A stretch of 64,000 nucleotides of DNA from Alphaproteobacteria bacterium (GTDB taxonomy: Bacteria > Pseudomonadota > Alphaproteobacteria > UBA828). The stretch covers positions 224,001 to 288,000 of the forward strand of contig CAXXVO010000007.1 in assembly GCA_963422645.2 (NCBI GenBank), in the 5' to 3' direction. The notes beneath the pieces are model-generated. The model saw only the letters and a list, made by a program, of their open reading frames with translations. It searched no databases and was not told where the DNA came from. Of the stretch, positions 1,897 through 15,233 are shown in pieces. Position numbers and translations under genes: made by a program. Each line of letters begins with the position of its first letter. Positions within the stretch are counted from its first letter, which is position 1.

Positions 1897-1993
1897 GGGA
1901 GATCGGCGGCGGACGGCTAACTCGCGAACCCGGTCAGGTCCGGAAGGAAGCAGCCGTAACGAGCTTCAAGCCGGGTCGTCTGCCGGTCTCCTG
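1897..1993 (+). ncRNA. ffs: Signal recognition particle 4.5S RNA
   Basis: Conserved TCAGGTCCGGAAGGAAGCAGC core; ends GGAGATCGGC...GCCGGTCTCC pair; typical position upstream of dnaX. Confidence 0.95.
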
Positions 1994-6632: not shown

Positions 6633-9146
6633 CAGACTTCCTGACCTCGTGATGCTGGCTGTTCTGGGCAGCGTGCCGGGAACTCCTTGAATTCTGATAC
6701 ATTTCGGTTGTTTCAGGCGGTTTTTCGCTGGGTGTCGCGCCCGAGGTCTGATATTATAATTTGATACCAATTGCACGGGGTCTCAACCATGCCCAGTACC
6801 CTCCCAATGTGCCCTCCAGAGGCGGTCTCGATCGGCAACAGCTGCTTCGCCGTCCTGATCTCGGACGACACCTTCACCTACTTTTCCAACCTCATTCCCT
6901 TTGACAGCCACGCCGCCGATGACCGCACGGCCATGCTCTTGCGGATCGGCCGCCTCGCGGCGATCAGCGCGGTCTCGCCGCAGGAACTGGCTGACGCTTT
7001 CGCTGTCTCGCGCGCGACGGTGCAGCGCGCACGACGGCGCTACCTGGCCGAGGGCGAAGCGGGGTTCATGAAGCCCCGGCGCGGTCGCGGGCCGTCGGTG
7101 TTCACTCCGGAGTTGGCGGAGAAGGCGACGGCGTTGCTGGCATCGGGCCTGAGCGGCTCTGCGGCGGCCCGGGTTCTCGGCGTGTCAGCGCCATCGGTCA
7201 ACAAGTGGCGCCGTCAGGGACTGATCGGCAACACGGAGGCGGATGGGGAGCCCGGACGCTCAGCGCTGGCTGCGCCGCCTGACGCGGGTGCGGCTCCTGA
7301 AGGCCGTGTCGATGAAGAGAGTACCGGTGCCCCGGGGCCGGAGACGGCGCCGGGGCTGGAAGCGCAGCCGCAAACGGATCGCAGCGCGCGCGATCGGCGG
7401 GACCGGCAGGCGCCGATGGGGCGTGCGACTTGCGATGTTCCGGCTCGGGTTCTGGCCAGTTGTGGACAGGCGGGGCCGGTCGAACCGCAGTTCGCCGCCG
7501 CCGCCCGCGGTGTCCGCTTCGGCGGCGTGCTCGCCGCCCTGCCGGCCCTGCTGAAGGAAGGTCTTCTCTCCGAGACCGGTCTCCTGCCATTGCTGCCGAA
7601 GGGCTATTACGGCTTGCCTACGATCCTGCTCTTCCTGGCCTTCATGACCTTGGCGCGGGTGCGCAACCCCGAGAGCCTGCGCTACCAGGCGCCGGGCGAA
7701 TGGGGCGCCATTCTCGGCCTCGATCGCTGCCCCGAGGTCAAGACGCTGCGCCGCAAGATCGCTCTCATCGCCGACGACGAGGCCGGCGTGCGGGCGTGGC
7801 AGCTCGCCCTTGCCAGGCGCTGGCAAGGCCGACGAGCCGGAGCTCTGGGCGACGCTGGCCATCGACGGGCACGTCAAGGTCTACTCCGGCCGCAAGGGGC
7901 GCTTGCCCAAGCACTTCGTCTCGCGCGAGAAGCTGTGCCTGCCGGCGAGCGCCAGCTACTGGATCAACGCTCTGGGCGGCAAGCCGCTGCTCTGTCTGCA
8001 CAAGCCGCTGGACCCGAAGATGGTCGCGGCCATCGAAGCCGACGTGGTGCCGGCGCTGCAGGAGCTTGGGATCGTTGGCGCCGGGGCGCCGGACCTGACC
8101 GCCGAGCATCCCGGCCAGCCGGCGCTCACCCTGGTCTTCGACCGCGAGGGCTGGAGCCCGGATCTGTTCCGCCGGCTGGCGAGGCGCGGCGTCGCCTGCC
8201 TGACCTGGCACAAGAACTTCAGGGGCGAGGACTGGCCGGCCGAGGACTTCGGCGCGATGACCGTTCCCATTCACGGACCGGCGGCGGACGGCAGCGCCAC
8301 CATGCGGCTGGCTGAGAAGCCGGTGACGTTGCCGAACGGCTTCAGGGTGCGCCAGATCCGCCGCCTGCTCGACAACGGCCGTCAGGTGCCGCTGATCACC
8401 ACCGATCCGCACAAGCCGATGGCTGAGGTTGCGGGCGCCATGTTCTCGCGCTGGTCGCAGGAGAACTTCTTCAAGTACATGCGTGACGAGTTCAATCTCG
8501 ACGCCCTGCCGACCCACGAGCTCGAGCCTCTCGATCCCGCCGCCATGGTCGTCAACCCGCTGCGGCGGGCCTATGACAAGGCAATCCATCGCCTCGACCG
8601 CCAGCTTGGCCGCCTGCGCAACCGCATCGCCGACACGGCCCGGAAGAAGCAGCCGACGGCGGAACTCAGGAGGGAAGTCAGGGACCTCCAGGATGTCCGC
8701 GACATCGTCAGGGCCAGCCGCAGGGAGACGCCCAAGCACTGCCGGGCCGGCGACCTCGACGAAGCCGAGCAGCTCGATGCCTTGCCCGCGCGCGAGCGCC
8801 TCCTCCTCGACGTCATCCGGATGATCGCCTACCGCGCCGAAACCCGCATGATGCTTCCCGTCATGCAGGCGCAGGGCCACAAGCCCCATCCCCGGAAACT
8901 GCTTCAAGCGCTGCTCACCGCCGATGCCGACATCCTGCCGGATCCTGGCAATGGCCTCCTGCGGGTCCACATTCTTGGCCTCGCAAACGACGCCTGCGAC
9001 CGTTGGATCGATGCGGTTCTGAGCGACCTGAACGCCACCGAAACGGTCTTCCCCGGCACCCGTCTGCGCATAGTCTACGACATCGACGGGGCCTCGGAAT
9101 CCGCGCGGCTCGTGTCACCTAAAATCAGCAGAGGTCAGGAAGTCTG
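6633..9146 (+). mobile_element. Insertion sequence (~2.5 kb, family not assigned) with 16-bp TIRs and 5-bp target duplication
   Basis: TIR CAGACTTCCTGACCTC at 6633-6648 and its reverse complement at 9131-9146; AGGCT at 6628-6632 and 9147-9151. Confidence 0.92.
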
Positions 9147-9147
9147 A
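6789..9147 (+). pseudogene. DDE-type transposase with N-terminal HTHs, frameshifted near 7825
   Basis: Frame 1 ...LALARRWQ continues in frame 2 as ADEPELWATLAIDGH; acidic motifs IDGH, VFDRE, RWSQENFF; one extra base in CAAGGCC. Confidence 0.8.
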
Positions 9148-9385: not shown

Positions 9386-10432
9386 TCAGAAGTTGACGGC
9401 AGTACCGATCATGAACTGGACCCACTCGTCCGAGCCGTCATCGCCGAAGTCGAGCTGCATATCGAGCTGCACGCCCTCGCCCAGCGGATAAGCGGCACCG
9501 AGTGCGTACATGTCGGCGGTATCCGTGCTGCCCCAGCCGGCGCTGACTGAGAGAGCGCCCATTGCGGCGACGGCGCCGATGTCAGTTCGCATCGACTCCA
9601 TGCCGTTGCCGTCAGAGGAATCTCTCATGCCGCCGCTGACGGTAATGTCACCGACAGAAACCGACGCCCCGGCATTCAAATCGGTCGGTGACGCACCGCC
9701 CTCGTCCGCGGTCTCGTAGCCGACGTTGATGCTGACGCTGGCGTCGCCGAGCCCTTGCGTGAACGTGAGGGCGGCTGCGATCTGATCGTTCACCGCGGGA
9801 GTACCGTCATCCGGTACCGCGCCATCAGGCGCGTAGCTCACCCCGACCTGAATGCCGCCGACGGCCGGAGACGTGTAAAGGATCTTGTCGTCCCGGGTCC
9901 CGGCACCGAATCCGGTGCCGTCGGTAGCGACGGTCGCGGCGATGCCGCCGTAGTAAGGCCCGTTGATGCCGAAACTGCTAGTGGCACCCGCCGAAGCCTT
10001 CCTCGATCCCGCGCGCGCACCCTTGATCGCGCCAACAGCGATCTCGCCGAACGCACCGCTGATGGTGATACGGCGGTCGTACGCGACCCCGGGATCAAAC
10101 CAAGTCCCTGATGCGTCGATATAGGCGGCGACACCGAAGGTCAGGCCGTTGTCCATGGTCGCGGATCCGGAGATCACGGGTTCCAGGTGTTCAAACAAGT
10201 CTGGCGAACCATCATCGGTCGAAGTGCTAGCGGCGACCCGCATGCTGCCGCTGATGCCGACCGAGACGGGCTCGGCCATCATCGCTTCTTCCATCATCTC
10301 TTCTTCGGCCATCATCTCTTCTTCGGCCATCATCTCTTCTTCGGCCATTTCCTCGTCCTGAGCGTAGGCCACGCTGGTGACGAGCAGGCCAGCGGCGACA
10401 ATCGCCGTCGTGCTCAACAGTACCTTCTTCAT
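9386..10432 (-). CDS. Gram-negative porin, paralog 1, with Glu/Met-rich N-terminal repeats
   Basis: MKKVLLSTTA signal, SATMDNGLTFGV, SGAFGEIAVG, YTSPAVGGIQVGVSYAP, C-terminal Phe. Confidence 0.88.
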   Translation of the reverse strand: MKKVLLSTTAIVAAGLLVTSVAYAQDEEMAEEEMMAEEEMMAEEEMMEEAMMAEPVSVGISGSMRVAASTSTDDGSPDLFEHLEPVISGSATMDNGLTFGVAAYIDASGTWFDPGVAYDRRITISGAFGEIAVGAIKGARAGSRKASAGATSSFGINGPYYGGIAATVATDGTGFGAGTRDDKILYTSPAVGGIQVGVSYAPDGAVPDDGTPAVNDQIAAALTFTQGLGDASVSINVGYETADEGGASPTDLNAGASVSVGDITVSGGMRDSSDGNGMESMRTDIGAVAAMGALSVSAGWGSTDTADMYALGAAYPLGEGVQLDMQLDFGDDGSDEWVQFMIGTAVNF

Positions 10433-10933: not shown

Positions 10934-11944
10934 ATGAAGCGAGTTCTTCTGAGCACCACGTCACTCGTCGCCGCCAGCTTGTTGGTCACCAGCGTCGCCT
11001 ACGCCGGCGACGAAGAAATGGCCGAAGGCGAGATGATGGCCGAAGAAGAGATGATGGAAGAGATGATGATGGCCGAGCCCATCTCGGTCGGCATCAGCGG
11101 GACCGCCTTTGCTGCCATGAGCGTTTCGGGCGAGGATGACTCACCAACGATGTGGCAGCACTTCGAGCCCGTGATCTCCGGATCTGCGACCATGGACAAC
11201 GGCCTGACCTTTGGCGTCTCCATGGTGATCGATATAGGAAGTACTTGGTCTAATTCCGGAATCGCCTACGACCGCCATATTAGCGTCGGTGGTGCCTTCG
11301 GCGACATCGAACTTGGCAGACGCAAGAGCGCGAGATCGCAAATGAAGATTGGCTCTGCGGGTGCAACCACCAACTTCGGCGTCAACGGGCCTTACTGGGG
11401 CGGCGTCGCCGCGACCGTCGACACCTCCGGCGGTCGGGTTGACACGATCGTGTACAAGTCTCCCTCCGTCGGCGGCATCCAGCTCGGGTTGAGCTACGCT
11501 CCGGATGCCGGCACTGCGGATGACCAGGCCTCAGCAGCCGCTACGTTCACGCAGGATCTTGGGGACGCCAGCGTCAGCATCAACGTCGGCTACGAGACCC
11601 GAGATGCGGGTGGCGCGTCGCCGAGCGATTTGAATGCCGGGGCGTCAATTTCGGTCGGCGACGTCACCCTCAGCGGTGGCATGAAAGATACCGATGACGG
11701 CGCAGGCGGCGGAGGGATGCTGATGGACGTCGGAGCCAGCGTCGCCATGGGCTCGCTCACCCTCAGTGCCGGATGGGCCAACTCGGATACGACCGACATG
11801 TTCGCGTTCGCCGCCGCCTATCCGCTGGGCGAAGGCGTGCAACTCGGTATGCAGGTCGACTTCGGCGAGGAACCGATGGACCCGGACGGCAACGCAGACG
11901 GCGAATGGGTGCAGTTCATGATCGGTACGGCTGTCAGCTTCTGA
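10934..11944 (+). CDS. Gram-negative porin, paralog 2
   Basis: Same motifs as paralog 1 (EPVISGSATMDNGLTFGV, WVQFMIGTAVSF). Confidence 0.88.
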   Translation: MKRVLLSTTSLVAASLLVTSVAYAGDEEMAEGEMMAEEEMMEEMMMAEPISVGISGTAFAAMSVSGEDDSPTMWQHFEPVISGSATMDNGLTFGVSMVIDIGSTWSNSGIAYDRHISVGGAFGDIELGRRKSARSQMKIGSAGATTNFGVNGPYWGGVAATVDTSGGRVDTIVYKSPSVGGIQLGLSYAPDAGTADDQASAAATFTQDLGDASVSINVGYETRDAGGASPSDLNAGASISVGDVTLSGGMKDTDDGAGGGGMLMDVGASVAMGSLTLSAGWANSDTTDMFAFAAAYPLGEGVQLGMQVDFGEEPMDPDGNADGEWVQFMIGTAVSF

Positions 11945-12041: not shown

Positions 12042-12077
12042 GCACCCGCTGAAAGAGAGCGCCTTTCCACGGCGCAC
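12042..12077 (-). repeat. 36-bp copy of the group II intron 5' end
   Basis: Identical to 12935-12970 (GTGCGCCGTGGAAAGGCGCTCTCTTTCAGCGGGTGC on the minus strand). Confidence 0.9.
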
Positions 12078-12970
12078 GTAGAGTCGAGGACTGGCGCGCC
12101 TGCTGTAGGGTCCGGTGGCGGTTCCGCCGCTTTCGCAGCGGGCCTCAGTCCGGCTCCCTTGGCCGCGTTTCCAGTCCCCGCTCTCCGAACCCGGCGTGCC
12201 CATTTCGAGCACCGGGCTCTCCAGCGGGATCATGCATCTCGCACACAGGCAAAGCTCACGGCGATTTCGCGCGTGATCGGAACCTCCGATCCGGTCGCAA
12301 GGGTGCGCATCCCCTCAGTCATCGCGTTCCATCCATCATCAGCCTTGACCGCCGGGCCTGTCGACGCCCCGACGGTACCGCGCAGATCTGCTCCGGGCGG
12401 CCCCTTCGCTTGCACTTGCATGTGATGCTGCCGGGATCTCCGGCCATTCTCGGGGTTACAGGCTTAGCCACTCCCTGGCCCTTCTCCCTTCAAGGCATCC
12501 CTCCTCACCTGAGGCCCCTTTCCTCGGCCGGCATTACCCGGCGTCCTCGGTCTTACGGGCCTCTCCGCCACCCTGACGGCCCGGCCTGTCCCTCGCGGGC
12601 TTCCGGTTGATGTGCGCGCACCACCGTCAGGGCTTCCCGTGTTGCTACTCTCTTCCTCTTCCGTGCGTGCCGACGCCACTACCCCGGCGAGCCGCGATCG
12701 GTGCACATATCGCTCTCTTCCCGACCGGCAACGGTCTTCCCCTTTTGGCAGGAGGGTCGACACTCGCATTACCCGATTCGAGGCCTGCTCGGCGTTCACT
12801 CACGTTCCGGCCCGCACGGTCGCTGAGCCACCCAACGGCGGCCCTCTTCCACCAAGGTGCTTCAGCCCATGTCGTCACCTCCATGAACCGCCCTGGCTGC
12901 TACCAACCGGAGCGACAGTTATTGGGCGGGATTTGCACCCGCTGAAAGAGAGCGCCTTTCCACGGCGCAC
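12078..12970 (-). mobile_element. ORF-less group II intron (IIB-like, 893 nt)
   Basis: 5' GTGCG; domain V at 12219-12187 (AGC triad, GAAA loop, AC bulge); 3' end CTCGACTCTAC; EBS1 TGCCAA and EBS2 TCGGGT complement the 5' exon; no RT ORF. Confidence 0.9.
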
Positions 12971-13050
12971 TGCCAACTCGGGTTAGGACCAAGCTCTGGC
13001 GAGCCCGCTCAATCCTTAAGATTGAAAACCGCCGAGATTCCCTCTGGGCC

Positions 13051-13485
13051 TCACCCGAAAGGGTCGCGTGTCACCAACTCCGGGAAGAGGGAGAAATCTC
13101 GGTCGTGCGTGAGCAATGCGTCAACGCCATGCGCAATGCAAACCGCAGCGATGCGGGCATCGTGGACAACCCCGCCCACTATATTCGGGCGGTTCACAAT
13201 CCGCTCCAAAATGCCAATGAAGTCGTCGGTTTCGCTGATCATTTGCTGCGAGGGCGACCCTGCCCAAGCCATGAATTGGCGCCAGGCGTGATCGGGCGCG
13301 GTCGCCTCATCCTTCCAGACGCGGCGGTTGGTCACGACGCTCAGGAACTCGTAGCAGCAGGGCCACGGTATCGCCCAAGCCCGATCACTTTCGGCGAGTC
13401 CAACCATGACAGAATGAGCCGCCTCGCCCAGACGCGACTCTCGTCGGTGCGCGTAAACCAGAATGTTGGTATCCACCGCGATCAA
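13051..13485 (-). CDS. vapC: VapC PIN-domain ribonuclease toxin
   Basis: IAVDTNILVYA, YEFLSVVT, HDARIAA, LTHDRDF; TTG start overlaps the antitoxin stop. Confidence 0.9.
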   Translation of the reverse strand: MIAVDTNILVYAHRRESRLGEAAHSVMVGLAESDRAWAIPWPCCYEFLSVVTNRRVWKDEATAPDHAWRQFMAWAGSPSQQMISETDDFIGILERIVNRPNIVGGVVHDARIAAVCIAHGVDALLTHDRDFSLFPELVTRDPFG

Positions 13486-13549
13486 CGGATGCTGCCTGGA
13501 TCGCTGTAGATTAGCTCGCGCAACTCCGGCCAGGAATAGCGACCCATAG

Positions 13550-13800
13550 CGTTCACCGCTGCGGTGCCGCGGCTTTGTCGCGGAAGTAACCATGGGTTGA
13601 GTCTGCGACAGCGAAGGGCTGAAGTGGCGGCGGGTGGGGTGGCCGAGGCCGTAGATCCACTGGCGTGCGAGAGCACCCGTCCCATAGCTTGGCCCGAACC
13701 GCGATCGACTTCTGTCACTGATGGCGCGGGGGTCCCCGCGACCTCGTTCGAGAGATTGAGACTTCGATGCGGTTCCGCCCTACCCGCAGTTCAAGGAAAA
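13550..13800 (+). ncRNA. Putative IS110 bridge RNA in the non-coding left end (boundaries approximate)
   Basis: Segments match left target (13679-13687), right-target reverse complement (13692-13700) and left donor (13748-13754), interspersed with GC-rich hairpins. Confidence 0.65.
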
Positions 13801-13814
13801 CGGGAGGGCTTCCA

Positions 13815-15233
13815 ATGCCGAGCAAGAGGAAACGGACGCAGCGTCTAAAGGTGGTGAACCCGGATTGCGCGGGGATCGACATCGGAAAGGACCGGCACTT
13901 CGTGGCGGTCGATCCGGCTCGGTCCTCGGACCCGGTGCGGGAATTCGGGGCCTTCACCCGTGATCTGCAGGCGATGGCAAGGTGGCTTGCGTCCTGCGGG
14001 GTGACGAAGGTGGCAATGGAATCGACCTCGGTCTACTGGATCCCTGTCTACGAGGTTCTGGAACGGGCCGGCTTCCAGGTGATGCTTGTGCCACCCCGGA
14101 TGACGAAGCAGATCGGCGGACGCAAGAGCGACGTCCTGGATTGCCAGTGGATCTGGCAGCTCATGTCCTACGGCCTTCTACGGGGTGCCTTCCGCCCCGG
14201 TGATGCGATCTGCCCGCTGCGCTCCTACGTGCGCCAGGCGAAGCGGCTGATCGAGGATCGATCCCGCTGCGTGCAGCAAATGCAGAAGGCCCTTACCGAG
14301 ATGAACGTCCGGTTGGACTCGGTGATATCCGACATCACGGGCAAGACCGGTGAGCGCATTCTGCGGGCGATTGTTGCCGGTGAGCACGACCCGGAGCGGT
14401 TGGCGTCGTTGCGGGATTCGCGGATCAAGGCGAGTGCGGACACGCTTGCCGCAAGCCTGCAGGGCACGTGGCGTGATGAGCACCTGTTCGCCCTTGAGCA
14501 GACGATGCAGCGCTACGACTTTCTCGAACTGCAGATCGAGGACTGCGAAGCGCAGATCATGGCGGAGATCGAGCAGTTGACGCCGATGGACGATCCGCCG
14601 GACGGCGGCACGCCCGACGACGCCCCCCAAGGCTCCGGTACGGGGGCAAAGACCTCCCCGAACACCGCAGGCAAGACGCTCCCCGCACGGGAGAAGGCGA
14701 TGGCGCAGGCGCTAAGAGAGATGATGTGCGTCGACCTCACTGCAATCCCGACCATCGGCGTCACCACCGCTCTGGTGATCGCCTCGGAGATCGGCCCGGA
14801 CTTCTCCGCCTTTCCCTCGGCTCAACACTTCTGCTCGTGGCTGGGGGTGGCGCCGGGGACCAGGATCAGCGGCGGCAAACCCTTGCCGGGCCGGTCGCAC
14901 AAGGCGGTCAATCGGGTTGGACAAGCTCTGCGCATGTCAGCCATGTCGGCACGCAACAGCCAGACCTTCATCGGCACCAAGCACCGGGCGCTTCTCGCCC
15001 GAATGGATACAGCGATCGCGATCACTGCCACCGCACGGGAACTTGCTTGCCTGATCTACCTGATGGTCACTCAGGGCGAGGAATATGTGGAGAAGGGCAT
15101 GGAAGCCTACGAGCAGCGGCGCCAAAACCGACGTTACTCACGCCTCGACCGGCAGGCTCAGAGACTCGGCTACAAGCTGGTTCGGCTGAACAACAGCGAC
15201 GAAGAAACAAGAGTGACGCAATCAGCGGCTTAG
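13815..15233 (+). CDS. IS110-family DEDD recombinase/transposase
   Basis: AGIDIGK, VAMESTSVYW, RKSDVLD, IPTIG, SWLGVAPGTRISGGK (catalytic Ser region); GGGAGG RBS. Confidence 0.95.
   Translation: MPSKRKRTQRLKVVNPDCAGIDIGKDRHFVAVDPARSSDPVREFGAFTRDLQAMARWLASCGVTKVAMESTSVYWIPVYEVLERAGFQVMLVPPRMTKQIGGRKSDVLDCQWIWQLMSYGLLRGAFRPGDAICPLRSYVRQAKRLIEDRSRCVQQMQKALTEMNVRLDSVISDITGKTGERILRAIVAGEHDPERLASLRDSRIKASADTLAASLQGTWRDEHLFALEQTMQRYDFLELQIEDCEAQIMAEIEQLTPMDDPPDGGTPDDAPQGSGTGAKTSPNTAGKTLPAREKAMAQALREMMCVDLTAIPTIGVTTALVIASEIGPDFSAFPSAQHFCSWLGVAPGTRISGGKPLPGRSHKAVNRVGQALRMSAMSARNSQTFIGTKHRALLARMDTAIAITATARELACLIYLMVTQGEEYVEKGMEAYEQRRQNRRYSRLDRQAQRLGYKLVRLNNSDEETRVTQSAA

Follow-up and report, generated by a model that had tools for sequence, protein, structure and literature searches.

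How does a group II intron that encodes no protein come to lie in the space between bacterial genes, and can it still move? The question is raised by a 64,000-nucleotide (nt) stretch of an alphaproteobacterial genome of GTDB lineage UBA828 (contig CAXXVO010000007.1, positions 224,001 to 288,000), which we call the window. At 12078..12970 on its minus strand the window carries an 893-nt intron without an open reading frame (ORF), running from 5' GUGCG to CUCUAC 3' and identified from the sequence, from the Rfam models RF02003 and RF00029, and from copies in a genome of the same genus. We conclude, with a probability of roughly 0.78, that this element, ORF-less and non-autonomous, derives from an endonuclease-less, IIB-like group II lineage that homes to the tips of an insertion sequence (IS), that it probably stood in the window as part of a tandem pair until a deletion removed most of the second copy, and that it is now probably immobile. 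Below, G000 is the window's own genome (5.9 Mb, 23 contigs), G011 is a genome of the same genus, and the comparison set consists of 61 genomes, namely G000 and 60 relatives.

The intron is complete and its ribozyme looks intact

Both ends of the intron were read directly on the minus strand and are shared by all sister copies. The 5' splice junction (12985-12960; a slash marks each junction) reads ...TAACCCGAGTTGGCA/GTGCGCCGTGG..., with the intron start GTGCG at 12970, and the 3' junction (12089-12071) reads ...CCTCGACTCTAC/GTGCGCC..., with the terminal ...CGACTCTAC at 12078. An earlier reading of this DNA from its letters alone (the sequence-only reading) had recognized a complete ORF-less group II intron with a GTGCG start and an ...ACTCTAC end, and our analysis agrees. 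Of the span it proposed, 12078..12985, the boundary at 12078 stands, and the one at 12985 gives way to 12970, given that it takes in the 15 nt of 5' exon quoted above.

A covariance search with group II models, which had been suggested as a check, matched domain I and domains V/VI. Part of domain I (12800..12944, minus strand) matches the Rfam family group-II-D1D4-4 (RF02003) with 76.6 bits (gathering score 49, E 5e-15). In a permissive scan, RF00029 (Intron_gpII, domains V/VI) aligned to 12221-12078 with 37.1 bits (E 2e-5), which falls under the gathering score of 40 because of an insertion of ~70 nt within domain VI; relatives score 45.9 and 42.5 bits. Gathering-score Rfam scans therefore miss domains V/VI of this lineage. 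A lower RF00029 alignment (32.1 bits) that would place the 3' end at 12148 was rejected in favor of 12078, where the score is higher, a 14-bp stem contains a bulged A, and all copies have their end.

Domain V (12187..12219, minus strand) is intact, as had been claimed, with an AGC triad and a GAAAU loop, and 5 of its 13 pairs are altered on both sides between the ORF-less and ORF-bearing lineages. The extended domain VI (12081..12184, minus strand; ~104 nt) contains the branched internal insertion and has a 14-bp basal stem in which A12084 bulges out 7 nt before the 3' end and is the predicted branch point. All nine aligned relatives keep the extension. For domains I-III, together with the base of domain IV, we derived a consensus fold of 136 pairs from seven sequences, in which 97.2% of cells are paired. 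Double changes occur at 33 of the 136 pairs, compared to 19.9±2.6 in shuffled alignments (none of 500 reached 33) and 1 to 9 in controls with slid partners. Failure of domains I-III to fold, which would have spoken against an intron, was thus not seen: the window copy retains 134 of these pairs and 44 of 45 pairs in domains V-VI, breaking 2 of the 136 where ORF-bearing sequences break 0 to 12. G000 and G011 differ at 2.9% of positions in domains I-III (12/410), 6.3% in domain IV (21/335), and 4.7% in domains V-VI. Given this retention of pairs and the low divergence of domains I-III, the ribozyme looks structurally intact and somewhat constrained.

A non-autonomous derivative of an ORF-bearing lineage

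Over nt 1-458 and 736-893, the window intron shares ~80% identity with introns in which a 477-amino-acid (aa) reverse transcriptase (RT)/maturase is encoded. Matches to the intron occur in 11 of the 61 genomes, G000 counted. The relative in G005 is 1983 nt long and encodes an intact 477-aa intron-encoded protein (IEP) with RVT_1 and GIIM domains (TIGR04416, 329 bits), in which a domain scan detected no endonuclease (En) domain. These similarities support a non-autonomous ribozyme derived from an ORF-bearing lineage, as the sequence-only reading had proposed.

Domain IV (12226..12560, minus strand, with approximate bounds from the alignment with relatives and the consensus fold) measures ~335 nt rather than the ~230 nt first estimated. 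A decayed IEP start had been suspected here, and there is a putative one at 12464..12571 (minus strand): a GTG at 12571 opens 35 codons in all, ending in TAA at 12466-12464, and by eye they resemble the N-terminus of the relatives' IEP around a common PGNAG stretch. A tblastn search of the relatives' IEP against the window intron gave nothing significant (the best hit, E 0.48, was rejected), and intron nt 494-711, in the middle of domain IV, have no detectable match to the relatives' ORF. A search of genome_contigs for an exact 22-mer of domain IV, which registers exact matches only, found a single G011 record.

Several of the relatives are themselves interrupted by IS elements or other introns. 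Four of them, G013:C2:2311281-2320903 (L049), G011:C3:601000-604668 (L047), L048, and L050, hold other group II introns in a twintron-like arrangement, either at nt 161 (IEP 28% identical) or at about nt 417-420 (IEP 35% identical); L049 comprises two such nested composites in inverted orientation. In L042 (G004:C1:5560161-5563602), an IS at 837-1802 lies in the IEP gene and has a 321-aa ORF that is a transposase by look only.

Exon recognition and homing to insertion sequence tips

The recognition sequence in the 5' exon of the window intron (12971..12983, minus strand) was delimited from the sequence and by comparison with IS tips. It consists of intron-binding site (IBS) 2, ACCCGA (12983-12978), a G, and IBS1, UUGGCA (12976-12971). 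Exon-binding site (EBS) 1, UGCCAA (12745..12750), and EBS2, UCGGGU (12771..12776), both in hairpin loops of the minus-strand transcript, pair 6/6 with IBS1 and IBS2, respectively, just where the sequence-only reading had placed them. The chance of 12 Watson-Crick pairs at fixed positions is ~4^-12, and among relatives the EBS loops are hypervariable, the most variable parts of domain I. By inspection, loops of other introns also pair with their own 5' exons, with 7 and 5 pairs at EBS1 and EBS2 in G004c, 7 (three of them G-U) and 5 in G009, 5 and 5 in G004b, 6 at EBS1 in G047, and a match at EBS1 only in G005:C2. Relative to G011, two bases have changed in the window, A to U in the EBS2 loop and A to G in the exon; with these derived changes, EBS2-IBS2 pairing is 6/6 there, against 4/6 in G011.

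A third contact can be proposed from the few relatives with a known 3' exon. The candidate EBS3 is a G at 12679 (minus strand), in an internal loop between two domain-I helices. In this small set of sequences, G011, G004a, and G009 combine a G at the equivalent position with a C as first base of the 3' exon (+1), and G005:C2 combines an A with a T; the position holds C or T in some tandem arrays. DNA recognition by the family would rest on EBS1 pairing to UUGGCA and EBS2 to ACCC(GA), and probably also on a pair between EBS3 (G) and a C at +1. In the window, the +1 base is a G that faces the candidate EBS3 G as a mismatch, where the +1 C of an IS tip would pair.

The intron family homes to an IS1634-family element, at the outer extremity of its terminal inverted repeat, ...TTGGCA/CTTTTT. 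This IS is multicopy and ~2.16 kb long, with 18-bp terminal inverted repeats (CCCAAGTTGGCACTTTTT and CCCAGGTTGGCACTTTTT), a 4-bp target duplication in the two copies checked, and a 613-aa transposase of the IS1634 family (258 bits); G000:C5:533249-535407 (L144) is an example. Each full intron copy in G011 is preceded by CCCAAGTTGGCA and followed at its 3' side by CTTTT, in unrelated upstream contexts. G011 has 125 tip 12-mers, six of which directly precede an intron copy or 5' fragment by coordinates. Of the three full copies checked, b and c are followed by an IS body, and copy a gave no IS match. Given the 12-mer before the copies and the IS body after them, the family would insert by cutting the inverted-repeat tip between nt 12 and 13. 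In the window, 12982-12971 (CCCGAGTTGGCA) agrees with the first 12 nt of the inverted repeat at all but one position. Elsewhere in G000, the pattern CCC[AG]AGTTGGCA occurs only at IS tips (14/14). The sequence CCCAAGTTGGCA followed by CTTTTT is present at 14 sites in G000 and a CCCAGG variant at 13, the tip sites being paired ~2.16 kb apart in inverted orientation; all 27 tips are empty.

The traffic goes both ways. At G011:C1:25479-27638, an IS1634-family element of the kind targeted by the ORF-less intron has inserted in the lineage's IEP gene. With IS elements inside IEP genes and introns in IS tips, IS and intron each insert into the other.

Intron copies and helper proteins in two genomes

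The two genomes differ in what has become of the intron. G000 contains a single copy, a short stub described below, and a 75-nt fragment with 77% identity on another contig. G011 contains three full ORF-less copies that are 95-96% identical to the window intron; over 893 positions they differ from one another at 0, 4, and 4 and from the window copy at 40-44. It also holds three 5' fragments (nt 1-524, 1-179, and 1-106) and one 3' fragment.

The sequence-only reading had found no RT in the window, and an RVT_1 search found none either. Across the 23-contig G000 assembly, RVT_1 and tblastn searches detected no intact IEP and gave only fragments of a different IEP type, which are 32-35% identical to the cognate IEP and carry stops or ~2-kb interruptions. 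The RVT_1 hits are confined to two places, G000:C8:633016-636454 and C8:733145-741587, each a broken IEP copy with 60-75% identity to a 495-aa IEP in L049; ~2.2 kb separate the parts of one copy, and the other lies in three pieces with a transposase gene between them. G011, by comparison, has 61 IEP matches, including one open 478-codon frame that is 83% identical to the G005 IEP and has a YADD motif.

Mobilization in trans, which had been proposed on the basis of the window, is supported for the family in G011, where near-identical copies in different contexts coexist with an open, related RT frame. Judging from these copies, movement would proceed by reverse splicing and reverse transcription, with the RT/maturase supplied in trans by an ORF-bearing relative. 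For the window genome the proposal is not supported: the search for sister copies and a related RT, positive in G011, returned a single copy and broken RTs of another type in G000. Because G000 has no intact IEP, the window intron is probably immobile despite the 27 empty cognate tips, and it is probably stranded where it lies. G000, with its stranded intron, and G011, with near-identical copies and an open helper frame, form a natural before-and-after pair for studying the spread and death of non-autonomous introns.

A stub in place of the 3' exon

Immediately past the 3' splice site, intron nt 1-36 recur without a mismatch (12042..12077, minus strand; 36/36 identity), a feature that the sequence-only reading overlooked. 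The 3' exon is thus the start of another intron copy. The claim that the intron sits in its cognate site accordingly holds for the 5' exon and fails for the 3' exon, where this stub, with its +1 G opposite the candidate EBS3 G, replaces the CTTTT of the sister copies. The base after the stub is G, and intron nt 37 is G in all relatives and A in the full window copy; an older allele may thus be preserved in the stub, whose length would then be 37 nt, but a one-base match could arise by chance. Beyond it lie 51 nt that are unique in G000 and contain no IS body or recognizable IS remnant, and then the terminator region of a convergent porin gene. Comparing the end of the stub by eye with the right end of the IS, we saw no convincing microhomology at the proposed deletion.

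The intron's opening hairpin (GCGCC-GUGGAAA-GGCGC, then UCUCUUUC) is terminator-like, and because of the stub it occurs twice (12968-12952 and 12075-12059, minus strand).

The stub is probably the remnant of a second, head-to-tail copy. This view is supported by the presence of the same junction elsewhere, where some downstream units are likewise stubs, of 58-151 nt.

Proposed history and alternatives

Three steps would account for the locus. First, a copy would have entered an IS tip, or a tip-like site, 68 nt past vapC. A second copy would then have used the same IBS2-IBS1 junction, which the first had left intact, so that two copies stood head to tail. Finally, a deletion would have taken the downstream copy from nt 37 on, together with whatever followed it (the IS body, if any). 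Loss of the 3' terminus is described as a mode of decay of bacterial group II introns in the portion of PMC4496777 used here.

Several points weigh against this account. No IS body or remnant follows the stub, so a former IS at the window site is indicated only by the 12-mer with its one mismatch, and ~26 such 12-mers are expected by chance in a 5.9-Mb genome, both strands counted. Among 20 same-genus genomes searched, we found no empty orthologous site (the downstream flank matched only porin paralogues), so the order of events cannot be reconstructed, and tandem insertion followed by deletion is one of several histories that give the same sequence. The candidate EBS3 is drawn from few sequences. 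The intron around the candidate helper frame in G011 is missing its 5' ~560 nt. The G000 assembly is in 23 contigs with 8.5% contamination by marker count, and a helper may lie on an unassembled replicon. Lastly, the two derived EBS2/IBS2 changes could reflect selection for splicing at the window site, as opposed to a dead relic.

This last point leads to the best surviving alternative, that the intron still works. It would be transcribed with vapBC and splice without an IEP, by self-splicing or with help from the host, as is reported for C.te.I1, and it would be kept because unspliced RNA or loss of structure is harmful or because the RNA is useful. We think this somewhat unlikely. The ribozyme is as intact as in ORF-bearing relatives, with domains I-III better conserved than domain IV between G000 and G011, but the split from G011 (4.5% divergence) may lie too near in time for decay to be visible. 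The derived changes do extend EBS2-IBS2 from 4 to 6 pairs, yet the 3' exon starts with a G opposite the candidate EBS3 G, so that if read-through from vapBC transcribes the intron, self-catalyzed or host-assisted splicing would have to proceed with a mismatched EBS3-IBS3 contact. The intron is co-oriented with vapC, and a simple scan found no terminator-like site in the 80-nt spacer between them; however, no gene is interrupted, leaving nothing for splicing to restore. C.te.I1 is a precedent, being an ORF-less bacterial intron described in a genome without an IEP (PMC4424553 and PMC3919590, in the parts drawn on here).

RNA reads do not help to decide. Both RNA runs yielded the same tables, as though a single data set had been entered twice. 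Their contigs are confined to the intron interior (one, of 196 nt, corresponds to 12418-12613 with one difference), and carry-over of DNA is possible. Since the exons are uncovered on both sides, with no joint across 12970-12078 and no ligated-exon RNA obtained, the runs are uninformative on splicing and transcription alike. Joints in run X7, for which the content between the two sides is unknown and which probably come from ORF-bearing relatives, were not used.

It is unlikely that the window site was never an IS and that the intron retrotransposed into a chance tip-like sequence, with the stub arising from that event or from a local duplication. The likeness to the IS is indeed limited to 12 nt (11/12), with no recognizable IS body or target-site duplication, and sequences within one mismatch of the 12-mer are as common by chance as stated above. 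The behavior of the family points the other way, however, as all six G011 copies or 5' fragments are preceded by the tip 12-mer (four read directly and two taken from adjacent coordinates), an IS body follows two of the three full copies (the third having no IS match), and the matching pattern in G000 is otherwise confined to IS tips. Nor is there an obvious mechanism by which local duplication would copy exactly nt 1-36 exactly at the 3' splice site.

An assembly artefact, in which the stub or the single-copy state would come from a collapsed tandem array or from other phasing across the 36-nt repeat, is very improbable: contigs of run X6 (records 16, 17, 20, and 21) break inside the repeat and so provide no independent phasing, and tandem full copies exist in other genomes, but both junctions (intron 3' end to stub, and stub to unique DNA) are present in X6 contigs with 0 differences, the assembly has no other flank of the intron, so that alternative phasing would need free circular DNA, and a collapsed array would still end in the same stub.

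Head-to-tail junctions elsewhere

A tandem origin of the stub has parallels in other bacteria. We defined a junction motif as an intron 3' end directly followed by an intron 5' start and found it at 22 loci in genome_contigs (L077-L098) and 15 in metagenome contigs (L099-L113). At 27 of these 37 loci, blastn detects intron homology on both sides of the junction. The arrays include pairs of full units, independent ORF-less derivatives (periods 719 and ~895 nt), and mixtures of the two kinds, and some end in an apparent 5' stub of the lengths given above. One metagenome-assembled genome (MAG) titled Paracoccaceae has 17 junctions in six contigs (including G061:C46:77316-108583 and C58:9583-11759), with periods of 1999 nt for full-length units and 719 nt for an independent ORF-less derivative, at times within one array. 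Besides Paracoccaceae, MAGs with tandem copies are titled Versatilivoraceae, Longimicrobiales, Amylibacter, and Terriglobales; those titled Chthonomonas and Comamonadaceae have the junction motif, but no blastn homology to the G005 intron. A full-text literature search, with supplements and subscription journals outside its coverage, found no description of tandem group II intron arrays.

In tandem pairs with known flanks, a cognate 5' exon is present at the upstream unit only. The tandems are consistent with introns reverse-splicing again and again at occupied sites whose IBS2-IBS1 junction persists: since an insertion would leave the 5' exon pairing in place and only a single base of the 3' exon would be read, such a site could be entered again, building head-to-tail arrays. 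One array has a C as candidate EBS3, which would match the initial G of the unit that follows. If re-homing into occupied sites is the true explanation, the junctions to which the stub led us, in unrelated bacteria, may represent a mode of proliferation.

More broadly, we suggest tentatively that the lineage habitually re-enters occupied sites to build mixed arrays of full-length and ORF-less units, of which the window stub would be a vestige, and that it parasitizes, and possibly disables, IS elements through their tips. Each insertion would leave the outer 12 bp of the inverted repeat on one side and the remainder of the IS on the other, and in this way the intron would act as a parasite and possibly a disabler of the IS. 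With an IS inverted-repeat tip as the landing site, one mobile element lives on another in a form of nested parasitism.

Genomic surroundings

The co-oriented gene upstream of the intron (13051..13593, minus strand) is a PIN-domain, vapC-like gene (TIGR00028, E 1e-18, 67.8 bits; curated cut-off 73.6). Its stop lies at 13051, in keeping with the 80-nt distance to a co-oriented vapC given in the sequence-only reading. The intron lies in a region rich in mobile elements. An IS110-family transposase (13767-15233, plus strand; 281.7 bits) adjoins the vapBC-like pair, and upstream 7810-9147 (plus strand) encodes a Transposase_29 (PF21804) protein.

On the other side of the intron, two paralogous genes of 348 and 336 aa (9386-10432, minus strand, and 10934-11944, plus strand) are porin- or outer-membrane-like by look. 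They diverge from a common 0.5-kb spacer, begin with a signal-peptide-like start followed by an acidic Glu/Met repeat (EEMMAEEEMM...), and have 3' ends and terminators that are ~87% identical over 92 nt. Farther away, 1900-1992 (plus strand) encodes a bacterial small signal recognition particle RNA (RF00169, 61.9 bits).

Comparison with known systems

The window intron belongs to a known kind of retroelement, to which homing to IS tips, recurrent head-to-tail junctions, and a long domain VI are side observations, and each of the nearest known systems shares some of its traits. The closest precedent is TeI3 of Thermosynechococcus elongatus (Mohr et al. 2010, PMC2882425). In the parts of that paper on which we draw, the TeI3 ORF-less introns likewise go back to an ORF-bearing ancestor, have lost most of the domain IV ORF with remnants of its ends still visible, and depend for mobilization on IEPs of related introns in the same genome. 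Several near-identical copies and a related intact IEP in one genome mark that system; G000 has neither, and G011 has the copies together with the open 478-codon frame. The window family differs from TeI3 in belonging to a different lineage with an endonuclease-less 477-aa IEP and an alphaproteobacterial host. The window genome, with its single copy and no intact IEP, also lacks a counterpart in TeI3 as described, as do the IS inverted-repeat tip as target and the head-to-tail stub after the 3' splice site. For the window family, moreover, trans-mobilization is deduced from sequence only.

The target of RmInt1 lies within an IS, not at its tip. This intron of Sinorhizobium meliloti resembles the window family in its alphaproteobacterial host, in an IEP without DNA-binding and endonuclease (D/En) domains, and in a natural homing site inside an IS, ISRm2011-2; unlike the window intron, it carries its own IEP (PMC1802570, in the portion consulted).

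C.te.I1 of Clostridium tetani shares with the window intron a rare condition, that of an ORF-less bacterial intron whose genome encodes no IEP it could use (PMC3919590, PMC4424553), and the relevant part of a 2015 review names it the sole known exception of this kind (PMC4424553). As these sources describe it, a surface-layer protein gene harbors C.te.I1, which undergoes alternative splicing and is self-splicing in vitro, whereas the window intron is intergenic and any splicing of it is hypothetical. The window intron further differs in having close ORF-bearing relatives in sister species and a genome that holds broken IEP genes of another type.

Finally, B.c.I4 of Bacillus cereus also has extra RNA at the 3' end of its ribozyme (PMC1865049, PMC4424553). 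In the passages that describe it, the extra segment follows domain VI and the splice site is moved 56 nt further downstream. The ~70 extra nt of the window intron, by contrast, lie inside domain VI, and its bulged A is predicted 7 nt from a canonical ...AC end.

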